A DNA stretch of 64,000 nt from a virus, in IMG/VR virus record IMGVR_UViG_3300018875_000004, positions 1 through 64,000 of that record; one strand, written 5' to 3'. The position numbers were made by a program, and so were the translations under genes. Positions 20,418 through 59,061 of the stretch are shown here, one piece after another; positions within the stretch are counted from its first letter, which is position 1, and each line of letters opens with the position of its first letter. A model generated the notes under the pieces. That model was not told where the DNA came from, did not search any database, and was given only the letters and a program-made list of their open reading frames with translations.

Positions 20418-20900
20418 TCAAACTTTCCACTGAGAATCCCGCACCAGCAGAGAAAGCTTGATTACTGGACGCCCTACGTCAAGCGATGCACACTCCGCTT
20501 CTCGGATGTGACCGATCACGTAGAATGACTCAGACATTAGCTCGATGCTCTTTTTGCACCGGATTAAGAACTGCGCATCCCTCAGTTCTTCAAAGACAAG
20601 ATCCACGTCAATCGTCTCCTGCTGGCGGAATCCCTTTTGCGGATGCAGGTTTTGCCAGCTGTGGTCAAAACCAGCTGCGTAGATTGGCGTCCTATTGTGC
20701 GTCAGCGTTCTGGCATAGCATCTGCGCATAAAAGAGTCTTCCTCACAGCGGATCGCCATCGAAAGATTAAATCCGGACGCAAGTCCAAAATACTTGCGGG
20801 CTGCCTCCGGCTGTATATCCATCTTCTGTTCAAACAGATACCGGAGGACGTCTTGATCGTCCTCCAGAATGCTCTCCGCATAAATGGCCATGAGTTCCAT
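20418..20900 (-). CDS. hypothetical protein, MELxxxY N-terminus
   Basis: MELMAIY; RBS AAGGAG. Confidence 0.75.
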   Translation of the reverse strand: MELMAIYAESILEDDQDVLRYLFEQKMDIQPEAARKYFGLASGFNLSMAIRCEEDSFMRRCYARTLTHNRTPIYAAGFDHSWQNLHPQKGFRQQETIDVDLVFEELRDAQFLIRCKKSIELMSESFYVIGHIREAECASLDVGRPVIKLSLLVRDSQWKV

Positions 20901-20902
20901 AA

Positions 20903-21244
20903 TCAGTTGTACTCCTTACAATTGAAGATGATTACCCAATCACCGTTATCCAGCTGCAGCTGCTCATGGTACAGGATTTGATAAGCCTGCACCGATTCAT
21001 TTAGAAAGTTCAGCACCAGAACCTTGAGGCGATCCAGCCACCCCTGCGTGACAGGCCCTTCGGATTCTTTCATAACCCAGTCTGCAATCGTCAGTGATCC
21101 TCTCATGACATTTGGGTATTCCGGATGCTTCGTAAATTCGGATACGCCCTCTATTTTCAGATCGACCACTTGCTTATTGCAATCTGTTATCCAGAGCGCG
21201 GCCGTATCGATGGTCTTTTCTGTGTATTGCTGCAGTAACTCCAT
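20903..21244 (-). CDS. hypothetical protein, MELxxxY N-terminus
   Basis: MELLQQY; RBS GAGGAG. Confidence 0.75.
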   Translation of the reverse strand: MELLQQYTEKTIDTAALWITDCNKQVVDLKIEGVSEFTKHPEYPNVMRGSLTIADWVMKESEGPVTQGWLDRLKVLVLNFLNESVQAYQILYHEQLQLDNGDWVIIFNCKEYN

Positions 21245-21258
21245 GCCTTCTCCTCCTC

Positions 21259-23220
21259 TTAACTGAACACGACGTTGAACTCAGAATCTTGAATTGGTGC
21301 GCCTGGCATCTGTGCCATTTCATCGACATACGTAATGCTGTCTACGATTAGGTCGTTGCCCGAGCGCGATCCGGAAACGCGAATCTTCCGGCCAATCATA
21401 AATTCACTCTCATGCTTCTTCCAAATCTTATTGAAGATGACCAGGCTCAGATCATCCTCTGCGGTTTCCATACGAGCTTTGCCGGTTACTTTGCCGCTGC
21501 TCTTTGCAGTGAACGGCTTCGACTCGGTGATGTGTCCGGTGAAGGCAACATTCTTCTTGCCGTCTTCGATCGTATCCCATCGGGAGCGAACGCTGACGTT
21601 AGTGCCGAGCATTTCACGTTCGAAAGCGATAATGTCGCGCTTCGATGTCTTGGCTGGAATCTCCATGTAGGAAGCGTCTCCGCGTCTTTCGAAGTATCTA
21701 CGCAGCAGCAGATAGCGGTTGTTGTACAGCGTATCGAAGCTGCCGGACTTAATCAGGTTGCTGACCTTGGTTTTGTTCAGCTTCATGGAATCGTTGCGAA
21801 CCAGGAAGTCGTCGAAGTCGTTAAACGGTCTGCCTTTGCTGATGACGTCTACGTCCTTGCTGCTGACGCCGGCGATACTGGCCAGACCATACAGAATTTT
21901 ACCCTTGCCTTCTTCACCTTCCCGAGCGGGGATTGGTGTCCAGCTATCGTTGGAATGGTTGATATCTGGCGGCAGGATGCTGATACCCATCTCTTCGCAT
22001 TCCTTCATGTAGATGACGCTGCGTGGCACGTCGTCTTTCTTGGCGCCTTCTGAGGTCGTCAGCAGGGCTGCCATGAACTCTGCCGGATAGTAAGTCTTCA
22101 GGTAAGCTGTTTGAACGGACAGGACCGCGTAGCAGGCGCTATGCGCGTAGTTAAAGCAGTAGTCACCGAACTTGATCCAGTCTTCCTTGATCTTCAGCAG
22201 GGCTGCTTCATCATAGCCGCGGCTGAGTGCTCCAGGAATGTTCTTCTCTTCGGACCCGTAAATCATGTAGCCGATCCATTCTTCCATCAGCTCATGCTGC
22301 TTCTTCGAGATCGCTTTCCGCAGGATGTCAGACTGACCGGTCGTAAAGCCGCCGAGAACCACGGATGCTTTCATAATCTGTTCTTGATAAACCCAGATGC
22401 CGTAAGTCTCACCCAAGATCGGCTGTAAGCTGTCGAATGGAAAGGTAACTTTCTCCTGCCCTTTCTTCCGGCGAATATAAGACGGAATCAGATCGAGCGG
22501 ACCCGGACGGCCAAGAGCTACGATAACCGAGATATCCTGAACATTCGAAGGTTCCATCTCTTTGATAATACCTCTGAATAGGTCTGACTCACATTGGAAG
22601 ATCCCCGATAGATTCAGTTTGTTATATACCTCTTCATAGATACGAGGGTCGTTGTAGTCGATATATTTCAGGTCGAAGTCTGCAATGCCGGCATTGATCT
22701 TGGTTTGCTTAATCAAGTCGAGCGTATTCAGCTTTAGGATATCGAACTTAACGAGGAACTTTTCAATCCAGCTCATGTCATACTGCGTGGTCGCCAAGCC
22801 TTCTTTATCCAGCCGGAGCGGTACCGTGTTGGTCAGTGGCTGCGGAGACAAGACGATTCCTCCTGCGTGAACCCCTGCGCTTCGTACATGGCCTTCCAGT
22901 GCGTTTGCGGCCTTCCACCAATCTGGATACTTGTCTGCGAACATGCGCGTCTCTGGCGACTCCTGATAAGCGCCGGTAACAACCTTGCCGTTCTTATCCG
23001 TGTACTGATCCAGTGTAATGCCTGGACGTGCAGGAATCGATTTAGCAAATGCGTCTTGATCCTGCGGACTGTATCCGAGAGCTTTACCTACAGAGCGAAT
23101 AACCGAACGTCCAGCGAGTGTGCCATACGTTCCGATCTGAGCCACATGACCAGCTCCGTATTTTTGTTTCATGTATTCCTGAACCGCGCGTGCGCCCTCC
23201 CAGGAAAAATCGACATCGAT
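21259..23220 (-). CDS. dnaE: DNA polymerase III alpha subunit, exon 2
   Basis: Begins IDVDFSW after the intron; GVHAGG, KFDILKL, GIFQCES, YQEQIM, FNYAHS, LPPDIN motifs. Confidence 0.93.
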   Translation of the reverse strand: MDVDFSWEGARAVQEYMKQKYGAGHVAQIGTYGTLAGRSVIRSVGKALGYSPQDQDAFAKSIPARPGITLDQYTDKNGKVVTGAYQESPETRMFADKYPDWWKAANALEGHVRSAGVHAGGIVLSPQPLTNTVPLRLDKEGLATTQYDMSWIEKFLVKFDILKLNTLDLIKQTKINAGIADFDLKYIDYNDPRIYEEVYNKLNLSGIFQCESDLFRGIIKEMEPSNVQDISVIVALGRPGPLDLIPSYIRRKKGQEKVTFPFDSLQPILGETYGIWVYQEQIMKASVVLGGFTTGQSDILRKAISKKQHELMEEWIGYMIYGSEEKNIPGALSRGYDEAALLKIKEDWIKFGDYCFNYAHSACYAVLSVQTAYLKTYYPAEFMAALLTTSEGAKKDDVPRSVIYMKECEEMGISILPPDINHSNDSWTPIPAREGEEGKGKILYGLASIAGVSSKDVDVISKGRPFNDFDDFLVRNDSMKLNKTKVSNLIKSGSFDTLYNNRYLLLRRYFERRGDASYMEIPAKTSKRDIIAFEREMLGTNVSVRSRWDTIEDGKKNVAFTGHITESKPFTAKSSGKVTGKARMETAEDDLSLVIFNKIWKKHESEFMIGRKIRVSGSRSGNDLIVDSITYVDEMAQMPGAPIQDSEFNVVFS

Positions 23221-24428
23221 CCTTTATACCCTCGGTTTCCCGATATTTATTAGGGGAGTAGACTATATCATCATCATATCCACGAATGAGTGGACTTAGA
23301 GCACAGCGCTTCGTTTTCACTACTGGTTCCCACACCATAGTCGTTGAACCTTGCCCTCATCAGGCTTTGGCTGCGAAGCGAAGGATTAATACCTTCCCGA
23401 TTATCCAATCCGATTCATTTTATGAGCGTTCACGTTTGGGCTTGTCTCATCCCTGCGTTGTAGCTGAATCGGCTCTAAGGACTTTCCCGCAATTCACTGT
23501 GTTACTCACACCTGCGTTTCCACAGGGGAGGACTGTGTTATTAAATGTTGATATCTTTCATGCTTACGATCCAGATAGATAGTGGCTGAGTCATACATGA
23601 GCGTTGCAAGCCTGATAACGTCTGACTGCTTTGTAACTGATAACTGCCAGTTGTTTTTGTCATCCTTGTTTCTTTTTTCAAGCTTGTTTTCATTACCAAT
23701 AATATTCATGAATCCCTTCAAGATTTCTCTTGTTCCGCAAATCTTGAGATTATAGGGTAAGTGATAATTGTCTGGACTGATGGAAAATGATCCATCGCCA
23801 TCAAAGTATCCTCTTAGAAAGTGTCTGACCAGGTGCGACGGCACTTGTTCTTCGCTCGGGAACTGGAGTTGAAGTGATTTATTCTCGATGACTCCTTTAC
23901 TCTTCAGATCGTCGAACAGTTGATCCGAAGTAACCAGCAGTCTTACGTATTCACATTCACCATATTCATTTTTTGAAGTGTAGGTATTGATTTTGTAGTT
24001 GGACTCCATGGATTTATTAATCTTTTCCAGGTGTCCTCTGTCGTCTGACTTAATTGCAATACCTATACACTTCTGTTTCGTCGAGCGAGCTGTGATATAT
24101 CCATCGGCGTATATGAATCCTAACCAGTAAGCCTTCTCTTCAGTATCAATCTCTTTAAAGAAAGAGTGATTGATTGAATATTTGCGGGAGTTTTGCTTGT
24201 TGCTTCTTGCGATCCCAGCGTGCGTAATCGTGTACGTCACCGCACCCAATGATAGGCCCATCTTTTTCGCAATTTTCAAGCTCGATAACCCGCCTTGGTA
24301 AAGCTCAATGATCTTTGCTCTGTCTTCTGTCATCTTCATCATGTTATTGCCTCCATTACAAAAGTCGATGTAACTAGATTAACATCGTTTTGTATAGGCG
24401 ACAACTAAGCTGCAACATTTAATTTCCA
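23221..24428 (-). mobile_element. group I self-splicing intron in dnaE (1208 nt)
   Basis: Exon 1 ends in U and the intron ends in G; splicing restores YPD|IDVDF. Core AATTGCGGGAA, CGCAGCC, GTTCAACGACTA, GATATAGTCT; P1 GAU|UG pairs with CAGUC. Confidence 0.93.
23506..24342 (-). CDS. intron-encoded LAGLIDADG homing endonuclease with N-terminal HTH
   Basis: AYWLGFIYADG and HFLRGYFDGDG; own RBS GGAGG; lower GC than the exons. Confidence 0.92.
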   Translation of the reverse strand: MMKMTEDRAKIIELYQGGLSSLKIAKKMGLSLGAVTYTITHAGIARSNKQNSRKYSINHSFFKEIDTEEKAYWLGFIYADGYITARSTKQKCIGIAIKSDDRGHLEKINKSMESNYKINTYTSKNEYGECEYVRLLVTSDQLFDDLKSKGVIENKSLQLQFPSEEQVPSHLVRHFLRGYFDGDGSFSISPDNYHLPYNLKICGTREILKGFMNIIGNENKLEKRNKDDKNNWQLSVTKQSDVIRLATLMYDSATIYLDRKHERYQHLITQSSPVETQV

Positions 24429-25898
24429 ATCAGGATAACCTGCACGTTCTGGATTCAGGAAACGTTCGAACATCAGGTTCCATTTGATCGGGTCGATATC
24501 GGTGATGCCGATGACGAAGGCAACCAGTGAACCAGCAGCCGATCCCCGTCCCGGGCCTACCAGGTAGCCGTTATCCTTCGCCCAGTTGATGTAATCCGCT
24601 ACGATTAGGAAGTAGTCGGCAAAGCCCAGCGGATTGATAACGCTCAGCTCGTATTGTAGCTGCTGGCAGTATTTCTCCAGATCAACCTCTGTGGTCATTG
24701 CGTAGGTGAACAATCGGTTCCAGGACAGCTTCTCCAGCTGCTGCTCGGCGGTGTCGCCTTCTTCGATGATGTATTTCGGGAATAGCGGTTTGTCCGGCAG
24801 ATCAACATTGATCATCTCTGCAATCTTCAGCGTGTTGGCGATCGCTTCATCGTCGTTCACGATCTGGCGGACTTCTTCTTCGGACTTCATCCAGAACTCG
24901 TGTGCATAAACCAGCCGGTCAGTATCATGAATACATTTATTCATGCTGGACGCTACCAGGACATCGTGAATGTCGCGGTCTTCTTTGTTTGCATAGTGAA
25001 CGTCTGTTGTTACAACTTTCGGAGTGTCCGTTTCAGCAGCCAGTCGGTCGATGATCGCGTTAAGGCGAATCTGCTCAGGAAGCCGCGTTGCCTGCTTTTC
25101 AAGATAGAAAGAATGAAACGTATCTTTGCATTCCTGTATAAAATTACGGCACTCGTCCAGATCGCCAGCCAAAGCGAAACGGGCAAAATAACTGCCAAGG
25201 CAAGCAGAAGTAGCGATAATGTGGCGACCAAGACCGCGCTCCCTAATAAAAGCCAGATCGGTGCGAGGATTACTATAAAAGCCCACAAGGTGAGCGTCTG
25301 AAATAATTTCATACAAGTCCTCCAGCCCTTGAGTATTCATGGCCATCAGGACAAGATGGAAGTTGTCGTATTTCACGAGGTCGTAATATTCTTTGCGGAA
25401 GTCGGCAATCGGATCGCCGGTTGAGAGGTCTTCTTCGAATGCTTGCGGCTCTGGGTCTTCAATCATGCCGATGTTGAATAGATCGAACTCGACTTCCGGT
25501 TCAGCTACCGCCTTCTTCTTGACGCCGCCCATCAGGAAGTCTTTCAGCAGCTCGCGGGCTTCGACTTCAAAGTCATCCGGATTATTACGCATCGCTTTGC
25601 GGAACGCCTTCCAGGCTTTATCCTTGATGCCATACTTGTCAAATATTTTTGTTTTCATTTCCTTCTGGAAGTCGCCCTTTAAGGTGCGGTCTTTGGTCAT
25701 GTATGCTTCGCAGCCGGGAATCGGTTTAATGCCTTCCTTTTTACAAGCGGTGATAAAATCGGGGATAGCCCCGCAAACGCCGTGATCTGTAATGGCGAGG
25801 GCGGAGCTACCGATTTCTTTCGCGCGCTTAACGAGTTGCTTTACAGTAGACAAGCCGTCAAGCTCGGAGTATTCAGAGTGTACGTGTAAGTGGATCAT
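24429..25898 (-). CDS. dnaE: DNA polymerase III alpha subunit, exon 1 (PHP domain and start of polymerase)
   Basis: HLHVHSEYSELDG, AITDHG, DVHY, GPGRGSAAGSLV, FERFLNPER; spliced product 1143 aa. Confidence 0.93.
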
Positions 25899-25916
25899 GG
25901 CTGTATCTCCTATCGT

Positions 25917-26210
25917 TTATTCGTTGGAGCCGCCTTCTCCGATGACATTCAGCATAGGCGCTTGACCTTGACTGCACGCTACGCGCTTCGCAATGGTTGC
26001 AGGCTGCGCAGCAGACCCAATCAGGATCGTACCGGTTGCATCATGGCTCAGGATAATCGAACGCGTTTTTCTTCCCTGCGTCAGGTCAACATAACGCTTA
26101 GAGTCCTTCGCTTCGCCCATCATTCTACGGATAGGCGAGCTGTCCGGACGGCTCACAGTGATAATTTTGCTCAGTTCTACATAGTTTCCAAATCCTACAT
26201 CGACAAACAT
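25917..26210 (-). CDS. remA: RemA/DUF370-family regulator homologue
   Basis: VGFGNYV...PDSSPIRRMM..AK...VDLTQGRKTRSII...SAAQPATIAKR parallels B. subtilis RemA (IGFGNII...PESAPIKRMI...DATYGRRTRAVV...SAVQPETVAHR). Confidence 0.85.
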   Translation of the reverse strand: MFVDVGFGNYVELSKIITVSRPDSSPIRRMMGEAKDSKRYVDLTQGRKTRSIILSHDATGTILIGSAAQPATIAKRVACSQGQAPMLNVIGEGGSNE

Positions 26211-26213
26211 TGG

Positions 26214-27074
26214 TCATCCACCTTTTGAGAAAATTTTATTTTTCTCAGCTACTTCGCGCACGAGATCTCCATTCGTGTCGCCGGCGATTACGTTCGGAAT
26301 TGGTTTTCCTTCCCGTATTGCAGTGCGGATATTCTCGACATCCATATAAGCTTCGCTGCCGAAACTAAATGGATTCGGGTTGCGGATACTGCCATCATTC
26401 TTGGCACTGTCAGAATGGCAGTAGATGTTGAAAGGACAGCTTGTGCATTTATAATTGCTCGGCGTGTATCCTTTCTCTATTGGAGGAAGCACCCGGTCTT
26501 TAGCCATCTGTATACATTCGTTTGCCTTCTTCTCAAGGAACTTCCCGTATACAGGGTCATAATCCAGATGATACTCCCAGACTTCCTGGTCATCCTTGTT
26601 TTCCACGAAAATGATCCCTTTGTGGACGCCGGACAGGTGCATGTAAAACGTAAGCTGCGCCTTATGCTCGGCTTTCGGCATATTGTTTTCCTTCATCCAC
26701 TTAAAGCTTTTGCTGAACGCACTCTTCAACTCGACCAGATACAGTTCCCCTTCCGGGTTCAGGAAGCTGGTCAATTTGATCAATGCGTCCGTGTGGCCGC
26801 TGATGTTCTCTCGTTCCAGCTTCATCTCGGCTTGTACGAGAATGCCCATGTCAGCGAACAGCTGCTCATAGCGGTGATGCAGGCTATGTCCATTTTCGAA
26901 GATTCGGATAAGCTGCGGATCAATCTCTGGTTTGGGAACCATGAGCATGTCGAACACGATTCGCCGCTTACACATACCAATTGTAGACGGATGAAGCTTT
27001 CGCATCGGTCGTGTTTCATTGGCAGCTCGCTCCAAATGGTGGCGCTCGACCATGATCTGAAGTATGCCCGCCAT
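26214..27074 (-). CDS. Cas4-like PD-(D/E)XK exonuclease with Fe-S cysteines
   Basis: PSTIGMC, GHSLH, GHTD, VELKS, QLTFY, CxxCx5C. Confidence 0.85.
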   Translation of the reverse strand: MAGILQIMVERHHLERAANETRPMRKLHPSTIGMCKRRIVFDMLMVPKPEIDPQLIRIFENGHSLHHRYEQLFADMGILVQAEMKLERENISGHTDALIKLTSFLNPEGELYLVELKSAFSKSFKWMKENNMPKAEHKAQLTFYMHLSGVHKGIIFVENKDDQEVWEYHLDYDPVYGKFLEKKANECIQMAKDRVLPPIEKGYTPSNYKCTSCPFNIYCHSDSAKNDGSIRNPNPFSFGSEAYMDVENIRTAIREGKPIPNVIAGDTNGDLVREVAEKNKIFSKGG

Positions 27075-27096
27075 TCTCCGACCTCCTTTATCTAAT

Positions 27097-27110
27097 TGTA
27101 ACGTGTTACA
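27097..27110. promoter_or_regulatory. operator palindrome downstream of TATAAT (- strand)
   Basis: TGTAACGTGTTACA. Confidence 0.7.
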
Positions 27111-27162
27111 ATATTAATTATAAACGAGTAAACGGAAGAAAACAAGAGAAAAGCGGAGATAA

Positions 27163-27432
27163 TTAAATATTATCCCCGCTCATTGCCGCTTGTTGCTCAT
27201 TTATGAAGTCTTCGAAGAGTTGCTTATTGCAAGGCATTACATTCTGATAGAACTGTGCCGGCAGAATCAGCTTATCCCCGATCGTAATGTACTTGTCTTT
27301 GTCCTTAATATCCTTGAGTCGTGTTTCCTCGACCAGTGGGAACATGTGAAGCATGCCTTCCTGGTCTACCGTGGCGATACCGGCGATTACGACATGTGGG
27401 TTATAGGTTGGTATTCTGTTCATCTCAGACAT
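27163..27432 (-). CDS. hypothetical protein
   Basis: Overlaps the end of the sigma gene; RBS AGGGGAG. Confidence 0.65.
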   Translation of the reverse strand: MSEMNRIPTYNPHVVIAGIATVDQEGMLHMFPLVEETRLKDIKDKDKYITIGDKLILPAQFYQNVMPCNKQLFEDFINEQQAAMSGDNI

Positions 27433-28196
27433 TTAATTTCTCCCCTTACGCGCTTTTCGCGGAAATGATCTACAATGCGTTTGCGAATGCGATACACTGA
27501 TCGGTGATGCAATCCGTTAATCCTGGATATCTCCCGGTCCGTCATGCCCTCTTCATAAGCCTTGAGCAAGATGAATCGTTCACTGTATGTTAGCTCTTTA
27601 AACAAATCGCTGCCGACCGCGCCGTTGAGCCACAAAACATTATCCAGATCAGTATTCTCGTCGCCTTCGATATTCAGAGGCTCGTAATAATACTTATTCT
27701 CGATAATGCTGTCAATCGGTCGATCTTCCCCCGTGCAATACTCGTCTTTGTAGGAGTATGTTTCAAGCTCCATACTTTCAAACATCCTGTCGTCCACGAA
27801 GCGTTTCAATCGATAGCGGAAGACGCTGTACAGGTAATGGCTGAAGCCGTAGCCCATATCTTTGTACTTCCTGGCTGCTTCCAGCAGCAAGATCATCAGT
27901 TCGTGTTCGATTTCGGTAATGTCATATACGCTAAAAGCGTGTCGAATGTTTCGGATAACTTCTTGGACTTTTTCAATTGTTTCTGGCTCCGAGCTTCCAG
28001 CCTTACATAAGTCCTTGATAATGTCTTGTTCTGAGATGAAACAGGCGATAAATCGCTTAGCATCATAGCTCTTAAAATCCATTTCACCGTAGATGAGAAG
28101 CCGGCTGTACCGCTTGATCAGCTTGGTATATTTGCGGATCAGCGGCGCAGCGTCCTGCTCCTCGGTATATTTACGAAGCGGTTCGTCCTTGCTCAT
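27420..28196 (-). CDS. phage sigma-70-family RNA polymerase sigma factor
   Basis: Region-2-like ELMILLLEAARKY...FSHYL; region-4 HTH LTYSERFIL...GMTDREIS...SVYRIRKR. Confidence 0.8.
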   Translation of the reverse strand: MSKDEPLRKYTEEQDAAPLIRKYTKLIKRYSRLLIYGEMDFKSYDAKRFIACFISEQDIIKDLCKAGSSEPETIEKVQEVIRNIRHAFSVYDITEIEHELMILLLEAARKYKDMGYGFSHYLYSVFRYRLKRFVDDRMFESMELETYSYKDEYCTGEDRPIDSIIENKYYYEPLNIEGDENTDLDNVLWLNGAVGSDLFKELTYSERFILLKAYEEGMTDREISRINGLHHRSVYRIRKRIVDHFREKRVRGEIKCLR

Positions 28197-28761
28197 ATTC
28201 CTTCCTCACGTCCTCCAGATCAATTTCATCGGCCTTCTTATAGATGCGAAGCTCAAAGTACGGGCGAACTTCGGAATCCTTTTCTAAATATTCGAAGTCC
28301 ATAATTCGCGGCAGCGCATAGTTATCGTCTTTGTAGATGACCTTTTCTAAGGCATCCATCATGAGTTTCAGCACATTATGCGTGTCGCGGACATGTTTGT
28401 CTGGAAAGTACGCGTACAGCTCCAGGACGATTTTTTCCTTGTCTGTCATTTCCCATCCGTTGCGGACTGCCCATCCATAAGCAAGTCCCTGCCATTTATC
28501 AAACAGTTGCTGCGCTGCTTTCGTCAGCTTCTTACCACCTTTGCCGGTGTTCAGATAGATGTGATTGACCGAAGGGTAAAATCCCATATCGCCGTTAGCT
28601 TCGACGTGCGTAATCTTCTTCTTTGCCGGTACCAGCTTGCCTTTGGCATTCAGCTTTTTCTTGATGATATATTTCTTGCCTGTTGGATCTTTCGGGTCTT
28701 TCTCCCGCTCGTAATCCATGTAGGAACCGAACATCATCATAGGTAGAATTAATGGTTCCAT
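28171..28761 (-). CDS. rusA: RusA-family Holliday junction resolvase
   Basis: PSVNHIY and RDTHNVLKLMMDAL...YKDD. Confidence 0.85.
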   Translation of the reverse strand: MEPLILPMMMFGSYMDYEREKDPKDPTGKKYIIKKKLNAKGKLVPAKKKITHVEANGDMGFYPSVNHIYLNTGKGGKKLTKAAQQLFDKWQGLAYGWAVRNGWEMTDKEKIVLELYAYFPDKHVRDTHNVLKLMMDALEKVIYKDDNYALPRIMDFEYLEKDSEVRPYFELRIYKKADEIDLEDVRKEYEQGRTAS

Positions 28762-28774
28762 GATCTGCAGCTCC

Positions 28775-29035
28775 TTAGTAGTAGATGATTCGTACATTCG
28801 CGTCGCCGGCAACCAGAACCATCGGCTTGACGATCTCCAGTACGGCTGCATGCTTGTCCGATTCTTTCATCGAAAGAGGGATTAAGACTTTATCGTAACG
28901 GCTGCCACGCATGTTTTCACTCAGCATAGCGATCTTATCGAAGCCTACCACTTCCAAAAAGCTGTGCATGTTTGGAACGCGGTGCTTTGCTTCAACGCCT
29001 TCAACGATCATAAGGATTCGATTATTCTCTGCCAT
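28775..29035 (-). CDS. hypothetical protein
   Basis: TAATG coupling to the upstream gene. Confidence 0.65.
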   Translation of the reverse strand: MAENNRILMIVEGVEAKHRVPNMHSFLEVVGFDKIAMLSENMRGSRYDKVLIPLSMKESDKHAAVLEIVKPMVLVAGDANVRIIYY

Positions 29036-29526
29036 TATTTATTCACCTTCATTTCCATCGTGGGGATGTGCATATACGTGATGATCAGAGCTTCACCGAT
29101 AAAGCGGCCTTGTTCGTCATATCGCTTGCTGTAGTTGAGGTCTCTGCCGGTAAACTGGTCAGGAGACATGCTGTATTCCTGCTGCACATATTTGAGCACA
29201 GTCGCTTCCAGGATTGCATCCCGGGTAATGTTGACCTGATCCTTCATGCGCAGCTCCGGCCAGTCTCCTTCTTCTTCTTCGATGACTTTGTTAATCGCAT
29301 CGCAGTATTCATCGAACGTCAGGCGGCATTCGCGGCCCAGTTCATCGAAGCGCTCTGGCTCCAGAATGAAGTCGATGTTGGTAATCCCATGCTCCGACTT
29401 GCGTACCATCGTGACGATCTTATCATTTTCCTTCACTTCCTCCTGCTGGCTTTCCAGGGCGAAGTTCCGTTTGGGTCCGATTCTCATTTTCCTTGATGTC
29501 TCCTTTCTTAGGTGCCAGGTCTTCAC
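29035..29526 (-). CDS. hypothetical protein
   Basis: Likely start near 29487 behind AAGGAG. Confidence 0.65.
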   Translation of the reverse strand: MKTWHLRKETSRKMRIGPKRNFALESQQEEVKENDKIVTMVRKSEHGITNIDFILEPERFDELGRECRLTFDEYCDAINKVIEEEEGDWPELRMKDQVNITRDAILEATVLKYVQQEYSMSPDQFTGRDLNYSKRYDEQGRFIGEALIITYMHIPTMEMKVNK

Positions 29527-29625
29527 TCAGTACACCGCGTCCAATATCTTCAATAATCCGGATTTGTTTCATGTTTTCACCACCGTTCTCTAGTAAAGTC
29601 TTTATATCTTTCATTTACTCGATAA

Positions 29626-29650
29626 TGTAATGCGTTACAAACACATTATA
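29626..29650 (-). promoter_or_regulatory. -10 box plus operator
   Basis: TGT-TATAAT-N5-TGTAACGCATTACA on the - strand. Confidence 0.7.
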
Positions 29651-29696
29651 ACACAAATTTACCATAAAAAAAGAGGGGATTTTTATCCCCTCAAAT

Positions 29697-30593
29697 TTAG
29701 CTGATCAGCTTATGAAGATCGATCAACCCATCACCTGTATACGCATCGCGTCCAGGGGTTGCCAGATCCTCGCAAGATACCGCCAGCTTGGCATGGAGTT
29801 CTTCTAGTGTAGGACGTGGTAAGCCATTTGCCTTACAGAATCCAAGATACAAGGCAGCACACCCGGCAATAATGGGCGTTGCCATGCTCGTTCCAGAAAG
29901 TTTGGCATAACCTCCGTCCTTATACGTAGATAGAATATCCACGCCAGGTGCCATAATTTCATTTTTAATTCCATAATTGCTGAAGTTTGCTCTCTCCTTG
30001 CCGGGAGTCATAGCGGATACAGCGATTACTTCGTCGTACATGGCCGGCCAGCCTACGCCGGTGTTCTCATTGCCGGTTGCCGCAACAATGATAATGCCTG
30101 CTGCAGCAGCGTCCTTGATGGCTTCGTGCATTTCCTGCGGCGGCTCTGCGGCACATCCGAGACTCATATTGATGACGTCTACACCGAGATTGATTGCCCA
30201 GCGGATGCCGTCGATGATGGCCTGGAAGCTGCCTGTGCCGCGATCCCCAAGCACTTTGGCTGCGTACAGTTCTGCGTTCGGCGCGATACCAATGACGCCT
30301 TCGCCATTGTCAGCCGCCGCAATGATTCCGGCAACGTGCGTTCCGTGTCCTTGCTTATCTTCCGGACCGTATGGCGAACGGGTAAAGTCCGCATAGGCTT
30401 TCAGATTCGGCAGCAGATCGGGATGATCGCGGTCAATACCGGTATCAAGAATGGCGACTTTGATACCTTGACCGGTGGTTTTATCCCATACACATGGCGC
30501 ATGTGCGGCTTCAATGCCCCAGTCGATAATGTCCTTGCGCGCATCAGCGCCAAGCGAGTGGATCAGCTTGTGATCCGGGTGGGTGATTTCCAT
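29697..30593 (-). CDS. S8 subtilisin-family serine protease without signal peptide (Isp-like)
   Basis: Catalytic triad LDTG, HGTHVAG, GTSMATP; NMSLG, AATGN. Confidence 0.95.
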   Translation of the reverse strand: MEITHPDHKLIHSLGADARKDIIDWGIEAAHAPCVWDKTTGQGIKVAILDTGIDRDHPDLLPNLKAYADFTRSPYGPEDKQGHGTHVAGIIAAADNGEGVIGIAPNAELYAAKVLGDRGTGSFQAIIDGIRWAINLGVDVINMSLGCAAEPPQEMHEAIKDAAAAGIIIVAATGNENTGVGWPAMYDEVIAVSAMTPGKERANFSNYGIKNEIMAPGVDILSTYKDGGYAKLSGTSMATPIIAGCAALYLGFCKANGLPRPTLEELHAKLAVSCEDLATPGRDAYTGDGLIDLHKLIS

Positions 30594-30639
30594 GGATTCC
30601 TCCTGAATTTTTCACCCTGTATCCTCTCTATTCCCATAT

Positions 30640-30653
30640 TGTAACACGTTACA
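30640..30653. promoter_or_regulatory. operator palindrome upstream of the subtilase
   Basis: TGTAACACGTTACA. Confidence 0.7.
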
Positions 30654-30655
30654 TT

Positions 30656-31033
30656 TTAGTTTGCAGCATTTTCTGCCATATTAAATAGGTCTTGCTCTTC
30701 CATAGCCGCAGCAATCGAACCGACCATGCGGATGTGCTGACCTTCCGGAATAGCTTTGTATACGCCGCATGTCTTGCCGCTGATTGTGCATGTGCGTTTT
30801 TCTTCGATAAAGACGCGGTAGCCTTTGACCAGCTCATTCAAGCGAGGGTGTACAAAGTTGCGGTCCCAGCCTGGGATCAGACCGGCATTGTACATTTCAG
30901 AAGCCAACTCGTTTGCTGTCAGGCCTTCTTCGTAGTTAGACAGAAACTCGTATACGTTATTTTGACGAGACTCGATAGACAGCTGAATTTGATTGAAGGA
31001 TGCTCTGCGTGTTTCTGTTGTAATATTTGTCAT
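30656..31033 (-). CDS. winged-helix DNA-binding protein with C-terminal EQDLF motif
   Basis: GLTANELA...VHPRLNELV...CTISGK. Confidence 0.75.
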   Translation of the reverse strand: MTNITTETRRASFNQIQLSIESRQNNVYEFLSNYEEGLTANELASEMYNAGLIPGWDRNFVHPRLNELVKGYRVFIEEKRTCTISGKTCGVYKAIPEGQHIRMVGSIAAAMEEQDLFNMAENAAN

Positions 31034-31062
31034 GGAAAAAACTCTCCTTTAGGTTTGGTTTA

Positions 31063-31272
31063 TTAAGAAAGTAGATTTGCGACAGAATAGATAATGCCTG
31101 TGGCGGCTACCAGGAATCCGAAAAAGATCGTGTAGATCAGCCAAGGCGGTGTGCGGTGAAAATCTATGTCTTCACTGGAAAACTGATCCGGTCGTCCTTC
31201 ATACAGAATGCGTGGCAGCGGTGACGTGGGCGGCGGGGCAGATTGGGTTTGATAGATCCGCATCAGCTCCAT
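31063..31272 (-). CDS. small membrane protein, MELxxxY N-terminus
   Basis: MELMRIY from ATG 31272 (TAATG coupling, GGAG RBS); C-terminal TM helix. Confidence 0.7.
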   Translation of the reverse strand: MELMRIYQTQSAPPPTSPLPRILYEGRPDQFSSEDIDFHRTPPWLIYTIFFGFLVAATGIIYSVANLLS

Positions 31273-32015
31273 TATCGCCACTCCATGCAGTAGTTTTGTG
31301 CCGGGCAGTTATCACAGTGGAAACCTTCCCGGGGATAATACCAACCTTCATCCATGGCTTTCTTCATCATCCTGGCTGACTTATACAGCCGCTGGTAGTC
31401 TTTCTTCTTACGATCGACGTAAATGGACTGCGAGGTCTTCAGGTGGTGAAGGACGAACGTATCGACCTCCTTTTTGTACATGGAATGGAATGCCAACGCC
31501 TGCAGGGTAATCCCCATATCTGTTCGCTGGTAAAAGTCAGTTGGCCGCTGCGCACGCGTCATGAAATTGACGATCTCATGCTTGCCGCCAGCTGCTTCCC
31601 GGATGACGGGGATGCGGCCGATGATATGGAAGTCCGTATCCATCCGCAGCCGGAAATCTACGTTGACTCCGATCGTCTTATCCGGATTGTATTGCTGCTG
31701 CCGGTGGAAGAGGGCCAGCATCCCGAAGGCTTCCAGCTCTTTCTTCCGCTGACTTTGCTTCTGGTCAAATTTGATATTGAACACTTTGTCTTTGTCATAC
31801 CAAAGACTCGTGAATTTATCCTTCAGCTGCTCCAGCGTCAGGAATCTGCCCTCATGCAAGTTCACGTAGTAATAGCTGATGGTCGCCTGCAGGACTTGCC
31901 GGAGTCCTTTGCTCTCCTCCGTTTTCAGCCGCGGCAGCTTATCGATCTTCGTAAACTTGTATTGAAGTGGGCAGGTTTTAAAGTCGTACAGCTCCTCAAT
32001 GGTAATCTCCATCAT
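31272..32015 (-). CDS. PD-(D/E)XK/AddB-like fold, catalytic residues degenerate
   Basis: CPLQY and CDNC-x5-C retained; GRIP and IVNFMT in place of GRID and IxDYKT. Confidence 0.75.
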   Translation of the reverse strand: MMEITIEELYDFKTCPLQYKFTKIDKLPRLKTEESKGLRQVLQATISYYYVNLHEGRFLTLEQLKDKFTSLWYDKDKVFNIKFDQKQSQRKKELEAFGMLALFHRQQQYNPDKTIGVNVDFRLRMDTDFHIIGRIPVIREAAGGKHEIVNFMTRAQRPTDFYQRTDMGITLQALAFHSMYKKEVDTFVLHHLKTSQSIYVDRKKKDYQRLYKSARMMKKAMDEGWYYPREGFHCDNCPAQNYCMEWR

Positions 32016-32317
32016 GGCATCAACCTTTCTACACCCACAGATTCGTTATTCTTATTCATGAAGCTCCACATCACGCGATAGTCGCCTTTGATGGTAATCA
32101 TCACGACAACTTCCAGGCGAAGCGACGGGTCAATAAGATCGCCCAGTTTCTCGCCTACTGCATCTGCGACCCGTCTATTAATGATATTGATGTTCTCGAT
32201 CGTCAACATTAGGTTCTCCATATCGTTGACGATCGACATCGTAATATCGGTAATCATTCGGTCGATTTCTTTATGATTCAGGATGGTTTGTTTCAGATAT
32301 TCCCGTAAAAGTTCCAT
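32012..32317 (-). CDS. hypothetical protein, MELxxxY N-terminus
   Basis: MELLREY; RBS GGGGAG. Confidence 0.75.
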   Translation of the reverse strand: MELLREYLKQTILNHKEIDRMITDITMSIVNDMENLMLTIENINIINRRVADAVGEKLGDLIDPSLRLEVVVMITIKGDYRVMWSFMNKNNESVGVERLMP

Positions 32318-32661
32318 GGCGCATGCTCTCCCCTGTTGTCTGATTGCATGGCTTGCATCATGATCCGCTCGATATCCGCCGCCATACGCGCCCTGGTGGC
32401 TTCGTCGTTTGGCATGCCGATATAGCTTTCCATTCTTTCATAGAGCCTTCGCTCGGCTTGGCTGCGTATGACGTCCGGAAATTCAGCATGGACGGAGGTT
32501 TCGGAAGATGGAGCGGCCATCACTTCACTGCTGAAATAAGACGCGCGCTGCGGAGCTTTGGGCTGTCTTTCGCCAAATATCCCTCGTTCACGTAATCTGG
32601 CGAGTGCGCTTTTCGCACTCTGTTGTGTGGTTTTTTCCTGATAGATTTGCATGAGTTCCAC
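32293..32661 (-). CDS. hypothetical protein, MELxxxY N-terminus
   Basis: GTG start 32661 behind GGGGG gives MELMQIY. Confidence 0.7.
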   Translation of the reverse strand: MELMQIYQEKTTQQSAKSALARLRERGIFGERQPKAPQRASYFSSEVMAAPSSETSVHAEFPDVIRSQAERRLYERMESYIGMPNDEATRARMAADIERIMMQAMQSDNRGEHAPWNFYGNI

Positions 32662-32761
32662 GCTGTTCAACCCCCAATGCTGCGCGATACGCATCGGCTA
32701 ATCTGCTGATGCTGTACGGCGGATTCTGTATCTTGCGATTATATTGCTCTATGAGTTCCAT
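32588..32761 (-). CDS. 57-aa protein, MELxxxY N-terminus (not in ORF track)
   Basis: MELIEQYNRKIQNPPYSISRLADAYRAALG...; weak RBS, overlaps both neighbours. Confidence 0.5.
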   Translation of the reverse strand: MELIEQYNRKIQNPPYSISRLADAYRAALGVEQRGTHANLSGKNHTTECEKRTRQIT

Positions 32762-32909
32762 GGCTTTTGCTCTTCAATAGTCGGATGGCACTTTCCAGCT
32801 CACCGATACGCTGGTTCATGTTGTAGCTGGTTTTCATTCGGTGCTTTTTCATAAGGCGGAGGATTCTGACTTTTTCTTCAAGGTGGCGGATCGCGTTGTT
32901 ATATTCCAT
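32739..32909 (-). CDS. 56-aa basic protein (not in ORF track)
   Basis: MEYNNAIRHLEEKVRILRLMKK...; fills the gap in the operon. Confidence 0.5.
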   Translation of the reverse strand: MEYNNAIRHLEEKVRILRLMKKHRMKTSYNMNQRIGELESAIRLLKSKSHGTHRAI

Positions 32910-32942
32910 GACCTATACCTATATGTAACCAAGAAGGCAGGC

Positions 32943-33383
32943 TTATGCCCCCTTCTGGTTCTCACTTTCTTTGCGCTGGCGCTCAATGGCAGCCTGCAGC
33001 TTTGGATATGGGTCTTCCCAGCCTTCCGGCTTCTTCACCTTGCCGTCTTCTTTGTAGTGCGGTTTGCCGTCTGGCCACAGCTTGGACATGTTCGCATGCT
33101 GCACGATATTCATCAGCTCCTGCGGTTTCACGCCCATTTCGACGAGTGTGCCGATGGCGAAGTAGATGGTATCGATCATCGCGTCTGCTTGGTCTACCAC
33201 GTTGTCGGAGTCCAGGAACTCCTGTACTTCTTCCTTGATCCAGTTCATACGCTTCTCTGCGCGCTCTGGCGTGATCAGAGTTGGCGTATCTTGATAAGGA
33301 TGGTTGAATGCTTTCTGGAAAGCTTTCACCTGCTCATATGCGTAGTCAAGGCCTTTGCCTTCATACTGTTTCATCAGTTCCAT
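32943..33383 (-). CDS. MazG-like (PRA-PH family) NTP pyrophosphohydrolase with MELxxxY extension
   Basis: VKAFQKAF.HP, IKEEVQEF, ADAMID, ANMSK, DGKVKKPEGW. Confidence 0.88.
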   Translation of the reverse strand: MELMKQYEGKGLDYAYEQVKAFQKAFNHPYQDTPTLITPERAEKRMNWIKEEVQEFLDSDNVVDQADAMIDTIYFAIGTLVEMGVKPQELMNIVQHANMSKLWPDGKPHYKEDGKVKKPEGWEDPYPKLQAAIERQRKESENQKGA

Positions 33384-57000: not shown

Positions 57001-59061
57001 GCATCCGTAGGCTGTAACTGGGGCTTCCTTGCCATTGTCGAGCTTGGTGCCAGCGCTGCTCTTCTTCAGCTTGTAATACTGGCTCATGCCAGACCAGTTG
57101 ATCGCATCCCACCCGCTGATCTCCTGCCACTCTTTGTAGTCGTGCAGGTTCAGGCCGATGTCGCTGGCGTATTTATGGCCAGCATTGGAAGTGTAGTAGT
57201 CTGCTCCGTAGAACGCAACGGCGTGTCCGATTTCGTGGATGGCGACTTCTCCGGCAATGTATGGCCGGCATACGACCTGGTTTTGATCCAGTGTGTACAG
57301 GTCGGCATTGCCCAAGCTGCCGATTGGGAGCCAGTAGCTCTTGTATACGTCCAGCGGGGTCAGCGTATCACTCTGATCAGTAGATGGATTCGACGTGTAA
57401 TCAGTTGGCCGGTGCGCCATCAGGTTAATCACGCTGGCGTTCAGGGCATCAGGTTCAAAATTAATATAAGAATAGAATTGCGGAAGCTCTCCGTCCTTGG
57501 CCCATGCAGCAACACTCGGATTCGTCTTGATGTCGTTAAAGTCGATCCAGTGGTACGTGTAGGTGTTCGTCTTCGCCACCAGGTCAGACAGCGTATCGAT
57601 GATGTCTCCATCCAGGTAAGCACTCGCGCTGCTGAAGAAGAAGCAGATGTTCTTGATCTTGTAGGTCGCATAGATACTGCCCAGCTGCAGCGTGGTCAGC
57701 CCCGGGAGGTTTGTCTGCGCCCAAGACTTAAAGCTACTCCACGGCTGCGGCAGTGTCACGAGGCCCTTGAGGTTATCCTGGTGCATCTTCCAAAGGAAAG
57801 CGTGGAAGCTCTGAATGGTCAGGTCACTCTTGCTGTAGATGGCATCCTCACCCGGCGCCAGCTTCTGTCGGACGGCTTCCATAAAGTCCAACCACTCGTT
57901 GCGTCCTTTGAAGAAGTTCGGCTCGATCGTCAGTGGATAAATATATCCATTTGTAATTTGTACATTGCCGCTGAACGCTTTGTTGCCTGTCCAGTAATCC
58001 TGGTTGATGCTCGATGGCGATACGGATCCGTCTACAAAGTAGCTGATGCCATTGCTCGTTGCTGGCGGTGTTGTCGGATTCGTTGGTGTGGGATTCGTTG
58101 GTGCTGTACCGCCGCCCGATGTACTTTCATCGATCGCGCTGCCGTTAACCAGCATAACCACTTTCGTAATCGGATACGGTCCATCCACGACGCCGGATAC
58201 CATCAGGTCGTCACCGTAACACAGTTCGGTCGTCTTTGGCGTGATCGTTACCTTTAGCTCGTCCGGCTGATTTGGATTCGGGTCGTCTTTATCTGGAATG
58301 CCATCCCCATCAGAATCCTTATTTGGATCATCCTCTTCATTACAGTCAACGAAGTATACGAAGTCTGTTGTCGTTGCAGACTCTCCGTCCTGTGAGTAAG
58401 CCGTGGCCACCAGCTGCAGATACGTATCTTTCACTACGCCCCATTCGGTAAGCTGGGCCAGCGTTATGTTATCTGTGATGGCTTCCTCTGTGCTGCCGGC
58501 ATAGTTGTATTCCTTAAATGGAATCTCTGTACGAGCGGCAGAACCTTTCTTGCCGATCTTGAACTTCAGCACGACTTTAATCAGTCGGGAATCACCATGC
58601 GCTTTAGCTGTAACCTTGATTGGATAGTCGATGCCCAAGCAATACTTATCTGGACTATCTTTTCTCTCCAATATCCGGATCGTCACCTTGCCGCCTGCAG
58701 ATACGCCATCGGACGGATCATCGTCTGGTTCTTCTCCGCTACCTGGCGTACCCGGTGTGCCGTTATCGCCGCCGCCCGGATTAGAAGGGTCGGTGCCGCC
58801 TCCAGGATTACCTGGGGTGCTGCCGCCGCCACCTCCGCCAGGATTCCCGGGATTACTCCCTCCCCCGCTTCCGCCGCCCGCATCTGGGTCGGTTGGGTTC
58901 GGTGGTGTTGGTGGGAAGTAGGGCGGGTCAGTAACTTCGGTGCCGGTGTCCTTCTCCCCTGCTGCTCGTCGCAGGGAAGCTTCACTGTCAGAAGGGACGC
59001 TACCGGTATAAGCTTTGATGGTGAATCCTTTTAAGAGTGGTGTTTTATTTTTCTGCGTCAT
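54082..59061 (-). CDS. 1659-aa modular protein: Ig-like modules, Zn metalloprotease (HEIGH), vWA, YfaP-like tail
   Basis: G/P linker, DSDGDGIPD, AIHEIGHAV...EGFAEAY, FLIDYSGSM...LLTDA, LRWG...DFDFH. Confidence 0.85.
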   Translation of the reverse strand: MTQKNKTPLLKGFTIKAYTGSVPSDSEASLRRAAGEKDTGTEVTDPPYFPPTPPNPTDPDAGGGSGGGSNPGNPGGGGGGSTPGNPGGGTDPSNPGGGDNGTPGTPGSGEEPDDDPSDGVSAGGKVTIRILERKDSPDKYCLGIDYPIKVTAKAHGDSRLIKVVLKFKIGKKGSAARTEIPFKEYNYAGSTEEAITDNITLAQLTEWGVVKDTYLQLVATAYSQDGESATTTDFVYFVDCNEEDDPNKDSDGDGIPDKDDPNPNQPDELKVTITPKTTELCYGDDLMVSGVVDGPYPITKVVMLVNGSAIDESTSGGGTAPTNPTPTNPTTPPATSNGISYFVDGSVSPSSINQDYWTGNKAFSGNVQITNGYIYPLTIEPNFFKGRNEWLDFMEAVRQKLAPGEDAIYSKSDLTIQSFHAFLWKMHQDNLKGLVTLPQPWSSFKSWAQTNLPGLTTLQLGSIYATYKIKNICFFFSSASAYLDGDIIDTLSDLVAKTNTYTYHWIDFNDIKTNPSVAAWAKDGELPQFYSYINFEPDALNASVINLMAHRPTDYTSNPSTDQSDTLTPLDVYKSYWLPIGSLGNADLYTLDQNQVVCRPYIAGEVAIHEIGHAVAFYGADYYTSNAGHKYASDIGLNLHDYKEWQEISGWDAINWSGMSQYYKLKKSSAGTKLDNGKEAPVTAYGCTQPAEGFAEAYRLYIINPGFLRANFPQQFAFMEKYVKNLKSIGPVSTASIESTGETIVIDGYHSPFWMATSPYEQTFNFRYPTLDWEVGDSFVVEVKAYDSEGNEASDSMTVTIKDCSIDPNGPTVRDCLMFDTLHVEYYDANIQDIKKFDIPADWLPYEIDNGDGATAMFGWGDDNTIAAWFRDGGNNTGYGFQLSSIGINYLDEHNNAKTAWANSIFFQSEGVKNSERMIGDPAEKDNSRWIQQIKAYGNYSMSPSLGYKGDYVKFSFPNEFTTNQCPINKDVIDPENAGPNTDDPTSPDVPPYDPTKNPVRDCLLLDKIIFQYYSDVDNQMQTNIVPLEWLVTQELTVPTKAGDVRLVAGWSDYYKGVSLLIRGATGVNNIQLTGIGVIFKDYYDRTQTAWATDINFKTAGVKRKEWMIGGPKTMSNLPWVAEVQAGDYSNAPIIGKTGDFVVSKHVDLFTNMVCSIDPIHNSDPETGAGRDPKLEITEPSSNPTVIEQCNTDSLTIGGFAEMFPSVANIKATYRGSQVYSQDGDEVHEDFRFTIPSSAFGTGGGTTTDNGRADITFLIDYSGSMSAPIGKVADNLAVFISRLQADNVNYRLGCIQYSEVNDGQPIVKIGQTDNADNFISMLRSIAVSGGGDTNESGLESIMDPTNGALTYGFRTGAARHYILLTDAPVHDKDGDGRSVYGVTQTINKLKENNIKLHVIGPMSGEPYNQLKPMADATGGQYVDIMGNYGSQLQGISGQISEDAGELNSGKVIITATGADGRTLTREIQINVHDCSVPAPAPSPDEGNIENSYDMLFRLRWGVAPGTEASDFDFHAFLDRDSSKHLFYNSPPDAQYPNYKSYVEGTNKLYLNYDYTAHRAGQDDPWSNQVEIITVDGFVGRVLTLVVNHYQGAKAEQLDRLPQVEIVNAATNSVLQVIPLAAEDFSGGSVAVCDILLKSAGQTKLSDITIRKEKHNSIYP

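Follow-up and report, generated by a model that had tools for sequence, protein, structure and literature searches.

Unrelated proteins of Paenibacillus and Bacillus phage-plasmids share a short N-terminal peptide, a candidate address label

Seven otherwise unrelated proteins encoded in the first 64,000 nucleotides of virus record IMGVR_UViG_3300018875_000004 (the window) begin with the same short peptide, here called the tag. It is an octapeptide with the consensus M-E-L-[V/M/I]-x-x-Y-[L/I], and it recurs throughout a lineage of large phage-plasmids. The tag is strictly N-terminal, added on to complete domains, restricted to this one lineage and lineage-specific at residue 4, and selection acts on it as a peptide. 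We consider it probable, although well short of certain, that the tag is an address or docking label read in trans by a co-evolving partner. A first-pass annotation of the window had proposed such a label, an idea that is supported in part: its protein-level, lineage-specific occurrence on unrelated proteins holds up.

All seven starts of the form M-E-L-[LMI]-x-x-Y listed in that annotation were recovered, at 33383, 32761, 32661 (a GTG codon), 32317, 31272, 21244 and 20900, each on the minus strand. A six-frame scan of the whole genome (record G000, incomplete, 96,183 bp) for E-[LIMV]-[LMIVF]-x-x-Y directly behind a start codon returned exactly these seven. The DNA pattern ATGGARYTNNTNNNNNNNTAY, which describes the ATG form, has 6 matches in the window where 100 dinucleotide shuffles give 0.03, well over the background expectation. 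The scan and the shuffles rule out a chance origin of the seven starts. The tagged codons are also independently backed by the RefSeq PGAP annotation of a P. urinalis plasmid, in whose syntenic stretch the annotated coding sequence starts at the tagged codon in 6/6 cases. Shine–Dalgarno (SD)-like sequence precedes the starts; the matches at 21244 and 20900 are strong, those at the remaining five weaker. The genes form two clusters, as described, one downstream of dnaE-C and the other downstream of nrdF.

What is conserved is the peptide. Among 64 core tags, 47 start with ATG, 12 with GTG and 5 with TTG; Glu is encoded by GAG in 36 and GAA in 28, Tyr by TAT in 45 and TAC in 19, and Leu by all six of its codons. 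Information content across the same tags is high at residues 1–4 and 7–8 and about zero past residue 10. The DNA upstream of the tagged starts is not conserved, and neither are the flanks. Offset variants (MSELV.., MTELM.. and MSKELV..) retain the peptide, now displaced relative to the start codon. Together, the varied synonymous codons, three start codons, unconserved upstream DNA and offset variants indicate that selection acts on amino acids rather than on DNA or RNA, as the first-pass annotation had argued from codon usage.

The position of the tag is equally constrained. Matches within the first four residues number 44, compared with 0.67 expected from the internal frequency, and residue 1 is either the initiator Met or, where this is cleaved off, a Ser or Thr. 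Hydrophobic positions 3, 4, 7 and 8 share one helix face, and the tag is predicted to form a loose short (amphipathic) helix ahead of the fold. AlphaFold2 (AF2) puts it outside two unrelated folds, with predicted local distance difference test (pLDDT) values below 50–60. In the helical MazG-like enzyme that starts at 33383 (mean pLDDT 94), residues 1–11 are unstructured and the fold begins at helix 12. In the 113-residue β-rich protein that starts at 21244 (pLDDT 80), residues 1–8 are below 50 and a short helix (residues 3–9) comes before the first strand. ESM Atlas look-ups for two window proteins gave nothing usable. The tag does not have the properties of a Sec, Tat or lipoprotein signal peptide, since residue 2 is acidic, only four positions are hydrophobic and information ends at residue 10. 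An N-terminal hydrophobic segment was looked for in the carriers and none was found; their transmembrane segments are C-terminal.

Relatives of the record were found via DnaE, and the same motif lies on many of their small open reading frames (ORFs). Gene calls came from a simple purpose-written caller; the tagged-gene counts are approximate, and the pattern counts are independent of the caller. ATG-pattern counts over whole records were 11 in G001, 11 in G002, 7 in G003, 8 in G004 and 3 in G005 (61% complete), with 0–1 for reversed-pattern controls in the relatives. The P. urinalis plasmid (DnaE 79.5% identical) has 13 such matches, B. thuringiensis plasmid pd 9, B. licheniformis pSCDB14 3 and a B. 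halotolerans plasmid 1. Including GTG and TTG starts and close variants, the tagged ORFs number 7 in G000, ~24 in G001, 24 in G002, 12 in G003, 10 in G004, ~10 in pd and ~9 in pSCDB14. The close relatives carry the motif at about 7–25 gene starts each, which is about 5–10% of the lineage's proteins.

The comparison of N termini in the genome, its relatives and Bacilli, which the first-pass annotation had suggested, finds enrichment throughout the lineage and next to no occurrence outside it. A stricter pattern occurs at 24–35 per Mb in G001–G004 versus 0.24 per Mb in 61 Bacilli genomes. In an unbiased count, 'EL...Y' is the top three-position N-terminal pattern in 5/5 lineage genomes, and two outgroups show nothing comparable. 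Among 39 viral loci with a MazG-like homologue, five carry tags, 4–7 each and all from this lineage; the other 34 total one. The tag was not found in 0305phi8-36, KLEB27-3, Edson, Moorella phage MTATph1 or B. thuringiensis plasmid p1.

The tag-bearing lineage consists of ~200-kb Paenibacillus and Bacillus phage-plasmids. Source names give Paenibacillus as the host and, for some plasmids, Bacillus; a host-genus-specific feature was rejected once tags turned up in the Bacillus plasmids. The 'phage-specific' wording of the first-pass annotation is therefore right as a lineage restriction and too narrow if it means one phage, as the whole lineage is tagged. In the major capsid protein the lineage shares 50% identity with 0305phi8-36, which makes it a sister of that phage group. 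In the untagged relative p1, a plasmid of B. thuringiensis lyx16 (G008:C2, L118-L125; 145 kb, DnaE 50% identical), genes for the tail and for replication are retained, but a ~45-kb arm is missing, as are the genes for the terminase, the portal, a protease-like protein and the major capsid protein; this plasmid appears to be a defective derivative.

Residue 4 changes with the branch of the lineage. It is Met in 20/29 tags of G000 and G001 and in 0/38 of G002–G004, where it is Val, Ile or Thr (Fisher p=1.7e-10). Six orthologous families split identically at this residue, with no overlap, and in other fragments Leu is preferred. A parallel change across unrelated proteins is the pattern predicted by co-evolution with one shared partner. 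Elsewhere the tag is well kept between orthologues: Tyr 7 always, and Glu 2 and Leu 3 nearly always (a few N2 or M3), while the bodies of the orthologues, the MazG-like enzyme excepted, share 22–46% identity.

The tag is an addition to proteins that are complete without it, best appreciated in the MazG-like enzyme. Its product matches PF01503 over residues 19–98 with 65.9 bits (cut-off 21.3; E=4.5e-18) and, on this above-threshold match, is assigned to the MazG/PRA-PH all-alpha NTP pyrophosphohydrolases. More than 100 MazG-like homologues begin at the domain, and a tag with a linker of variable length and sequence is present in this lineage only. The proposal that the motif extends the protein ahead of its domain is thus upheld by alignment, with which AF2 agrees; cellular homologues too begin at the domain, and a reading of the tag as the native first helix of the family was rejected on these grounds. 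The nearest untagged homologues, 72–77% identical, are chromosomal Paenibacillaceae proteins with an unrelated N-terminal extension. The host gene (L115:10001-10423) lies just downstream of an infB-rbfA-truB-ribF-rpsO-pnp cluster. This chromosomal neighbourhood suggests that the phage gene (32943–33383) is host-derived, recently captured, and was tagged afterwards. A dUTPase behaves similarly. It bears the tag in G004 and in plasmid pd, with its domain from residue 37, and the untagged homologues encoded by Edson, the Moorella phage and plasmid p1 begin 30–50 residues later.

The seven tagged genes of the window are as follows.

32943–33383, minus strand: MazG-like (PRA-PH) NTP pyrophosphohydrolase, 146 residues, MELMKQY and an EGKG linker before the domain (Pfam, homologues, AF2)
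32588–32761, minus strand: 57-residue ORF, MELIEQY, no family found (Pfam, BLAST); the weakest gene call among the seven
32293–32661, minus strand: 122-residue protein, GTG start, MELMQIY (ORF, orthologue)
32012–32317, minus strand: 101-residue protein, MELLREY, its gene followed directly by one for a PD-(D/E)XK nuclease (ORF, orthologue)
31063–31272, minus strand: 69-residue tail-anchored membrane protein, MELMRIY, C-terminal transmembrane segment at residues 43–68 (ORF, transmembrane segment, synteny)
20903–21244, minus strand: 113-residue β-rich protein, MELLQQY, first gene after dnaE-C, conserved in the lineage with its tag (ORF, AF2)
20418–20900, minus strand: 160-residue protein, MELMAIY, no family found (Pfam, BLAST; ORF)

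Their bodies are unrelated, as had been noted: six have no Pfam family and no BLAST match to one another, and a family is found only for the 33383 product. Support for the GTG start at 32661 comes from G001, where the orthologue (188940–189272) starts with ATG, has an SD sequence in front and reads MELMQEY. The 57-residue ORF overlaps this gene with its 3' half by about 70–100 nt in a different frame, and may be a decaying gene or a real overlapping one. The orthologue of the 32317 product (G001 189232–189537) begins MELFRPY, and a syntenic tagged gene is also present in B. licheniformis pSCDB14. The 31272 product has a C-terminal membrane segment; it is matched by syntenic tagged proteins with C-terminal transmembrane segments in G001 and G002, and four syntenic carriers are tail-anchored membrane proteins.

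The same diversity is seen throughout the lineage. Compared without their tags, 77 ORFs of five genomes (median length 110 residues) fall into at least 57 BLAST-unrelated families. A single hidden paralogue family was rejected, as most bodies are unrelated and three different Pfam domains occur among the carriers. Four families are tagged lineage-wide: the MazG-like enzyme, the first gene after dnaE, a P-loop protein, and a protein whose gene precedes those for a DUF6094 methyltransferase and an SNF2 helicase. Tandem arrays of 6–14 tagged genes encoding 50–113 residues, with few detectable paralogues, lie at G001 57187–58671 and G002 105960–110383. A few kb from the arrays is a lineage-specific protein of 1210–1227 residues; its 1210-residue form has no match in Pfam, PHROG or PDB. 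Two tagged proteins, from pd (L134:18382-18816) and pSCDB14 (L143:6222-6608), contain a Tad2-like domain above the Pfam cut-off. Tad2 is a Thoeris anti-defence protein. A tagged protein of G001 has a sub-threshold match to Tad6. The tagged P-loop protein (G001 68294–70959; L013:8294-10959) is weakly terminase-ATPase-like and adjoins an Alp7A-like actin, a pair that would fit plasmid segregation in a phage-plasmid. That it is the true large terminase is unsupported: its Terminase_6N matches are weak, and a separate, well-conserved candidate large-terminase gene lies nearby. The carriers are thus lineage accessory proteins, comprising nucleotide-pool enzymes, Tad2-like proteins, tandem small proteins, tail-anchored membrane proteins and a P-loop ATPase.

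From these properties we infer a trans-acting reader. A portable octapeptide, with a variable linker between it and proteins that are complete in themselves and unrelated to one another, would present a free N-terminal helix whose hydrophobic face (L3, residue 4, Y7 and L8, plus E2) docks into one shared partner, and this partner would send every carrier to the same place or fate. The partner would most likely be phage-encoded, since the tag is present in two host genera. Candidates were sought by co-occurrence, with G001 as query, tagged G002–G004, pd and pSCDB14, and three untagged relatives. The profile narrowed 50 families to 19, which every other tagged genome compared possesses and all three untagged relatives lack. 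Among these are a DnaN-like clamp, a primase, a ThyX fusion, the SNF2 helicase with its methyltransferase, the matchless 1210-residue protein, a 173-residue gene product encoded immediately after the major capsid gene, and a VAT/Cdc48-like single-AAA protein of 550 residues with DUF1257 and DUF2997 neighbours.

Several points weigh against a common label with one reader. None of the 19 families stands out as the reader, and co-occurrence cannot single one out because the untagged plasmid p1 is without whole gene blocks, head genes among them. The carriers are so heterogeneous that a single destination is not obvious. The shift at residue 4 is partly explicable by new tags descending from tags in the same genome, which only the six orthologous families counter; descent could contribute, although it leaves the split between orthologues unexplained. 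Finally, the phage collection holds no cultured phage of the tagged lineage.

The most attractive destination is the prohead. Here the octapeptide would be the general cargo address of a jumbo phage-plasmid lineage, with a phage-encoded receptor and co-evolving specificity, a proposal we make tentatively. As in T4, the tag would bind the prohead scaffold or core, and accessory proteins, an exchangeable set with counter-defence and nucleotide-pool functions, would be packaged and co-injected; we regard this specific form of the address label as possible but doubtful. Of the likelihood given to the label as a whole, prohead loading for co-injection takes a minor part and a handle for an unfoldase or for controlled turnover a smaller one, these two being the leading concrete models; recruitment to another hub such as the replisome takes slightly less again, and another destination or fate the remainder.

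Capsid loading is the sole reading with a direct precedent, the T4 capsid targeting sequence (PMC3012670). This is a peptide of ~10 residues at the extreme N terminus, common to unrelated, fast-evolving small phage proteins, some of which counter host defence, and it is portable to other proteins (PMC3012670). The present tag likewise is a short N-terminal peptide on unrelated phage proteins. Moreover, its carriers are small, diverse, variable between relatives, arranged in tandem arrays and in some cases Tad2-like; genes for a portal, a protease-like protein and a major capsid protein are present in the lineage; and plasmid p1, which is without head genes, is also without tags. The T4 prohead protease cleaves at L/I-x-E. 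The tag differs here, with no conserved residue or cleavage motif beyond positions 8–10 and Glu 9 in only 16/64 tags, although the protease specificity of the lineage may differ. We know of no similarity between the tag's sequence and the T4 peptide. There are also far more carriers than in T4, 10–25 per genome with enzymes among them, and host phylum and phage lineage both differ. That the carriers include tail-anchored membrane proteins and a P-loop ATPase argues against packaging, as do the absence of any tagged ORF from the structural block of G001 (about 74–150 kb) and the lack of tags in tailed relatives with homologous heads (0305phi8-36, Edson and the Moorella phage). Encapsulin cargo-loading peptides and giant-phage head propeptides are further short terminal peptides that address diverse cargo into an HK97-fold shell. 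Encapsulin peptides are mostly C-terminal with another consensus, and the head propeptides of giant phages, which have a greater length, are defined by their protease sites; the tag shows none of this.

A turnover or remodelling handle is rather unlikely. On this account an AAA+ unfoldase, either the phage's own VAT/Cdc48-like ATPase or host Clp/Lon, would engage the free tag and so set the amount of accessory proteins or their state, for instance when plasmid maintenance gives way to lytic growth. The strict dependence on a free N terminus is consistent with such a handle, and the 550-residue protein, a VAT/Cdc48 D2-like module (PDB 5g4g, E=2.5e-49) that is 58–63% identical across the tagged genomes compared, has the required distribution. 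Tagged genes lie among replication genes, which a plasmid prophage would probably express too. The tagged genomes are phage-plasmids and the untagged ones mostly lytic, the exceptions being the Moorella phage, which has an integrase and a partition protein, and plasmid p1. However, this account draws on co-occurrence alone, eighteen further families co-occur equally, and the AAA, DUF1257 and DUF2997 module is widespread and not known as a tag reader. As a set, the module (G001 25068–27837; L011:5068-7837) is 44–63% identical across the tagged genomes and absent from the untagged relatives. Nor is the tag known to resemble any degron, nor has a partner protease been identified: an S8 peptidase is present in the untagged relatives as well, which also makes it an unlikely reader.

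Recruitment to a hub such as the replisome is a shade less likely again. Short motifs read by a hub, among them ssrA-type tags, the clamp-binding motifs QL[SD]LF and QLxLxL and the PIP box Qxx[LIM]xx[FY][FY], are often terminal. Like ssrA-type tags and docking motifs, the tag has about eight residues and few fixed positions, and the distance from its hydrophobic residue 4 to its aromatic residue 7 may recall that in the PIP box. The bacterial β-clamp motif is extended with alternating hydrophobics, whereas the tag's hydrophobics at 3, 4, 7 and 8 have helical spacing and do not match that consensus. DnaE itself is untagged; the DnaN-like clamp co-occurs with the tag, as do 18 other families.

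An effect in cis, in which the first eight residues would tune translation efficiency or timing within the ribosome and need no partner, we judge unlikely. The motif starts at the start codon, is conserved as amino acids and has about the length of a peptide in the upper exit tunnel, all of which such an effect would explain. Against it, the MS-, MT- and MSK-offset variants shift the peptide away from the start codon, a lineage-specific choice of Met versus Val/Ile at residue 4 would be unexpected with a conserved ribosome, and most genes in the same operons are untagged.

It is very unlikely that the shared N terminus is only a historical residue, left by new genes that arose from duplicated or captured gene starts and of no present function. 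Some members of the tandem arrays are true paralogues and the tags cluster in few genome regions, as common origin would predict. Yet L3 (59/64) and residue 8 are conserved though free to vary, E2 and Y7 being fixed by construction. A neutral residue would also have decayed given the divergence of orthologue bodies and the unrelatedness of most others, and the tag was placed and retained on the host-derived MazG-like enzyme and dUTPase. Lastly, a DNA or RNA element (an operator, recombination site, repeat or translational-repressor site over start codons), for which the dispersal of sites at gene starts might speak, is hardly credible and was ruled out by third-position variation, first-position Leu changes (TTR versus CTN), ATG, GTG and TTG starts and unconserved upstream and flanking DNA.

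No earlier description of the tag was found in the 0305phi8-36 papers, a jumbo-phage comparative review or a wider literature search, in line with the first-pass annotation. A peptide on 5–10% of a virus's proteins and on dozens of folds implies one recognition system that organizes much of the accessory proteome. Discovery of its reader would give ~80 functionally uncharacterized proteins one shared fate, and would show how captured host genes such as those for the MazG-like enzyme and dUTPase plug into phage biology. If the prohead is the destination, Gram-positive phage-plasmids would possess a second, independent and much larger capsid-targeting system of the T4 type, and its tag could be used as it stands to deliver proteins. 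The tag may more generally offer a minimal means of directing cargo in Bacillus and Paenibacillus phages, with the natural Met versus Val/Ile difference between lineages as a built-in test of specificity.

The window itself represents the arm of a large phage that serves replication and nucleotide metabolism, with genes for a GH25 lysin, a split dnaE, a RusA-like resolvase, an S8 peptidase, two PD-(D/E)XK nucleases and nrdF. The S8 subtilase (29697–30593) has no signal peptide, lies within the replication module and is kept in tagged and untagged relatives. dnaE occupies two ORFs between 21259 and 25898, separated by an insert at about 23173–24404 that carries a LAGLIDADG endonuclease ORF (23506–24342). 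Within the insert, a stretch of ~70 nt (about 23205–23277) is 84–90% identical to many Firmicutes phages, as the core of a group I intron would be.

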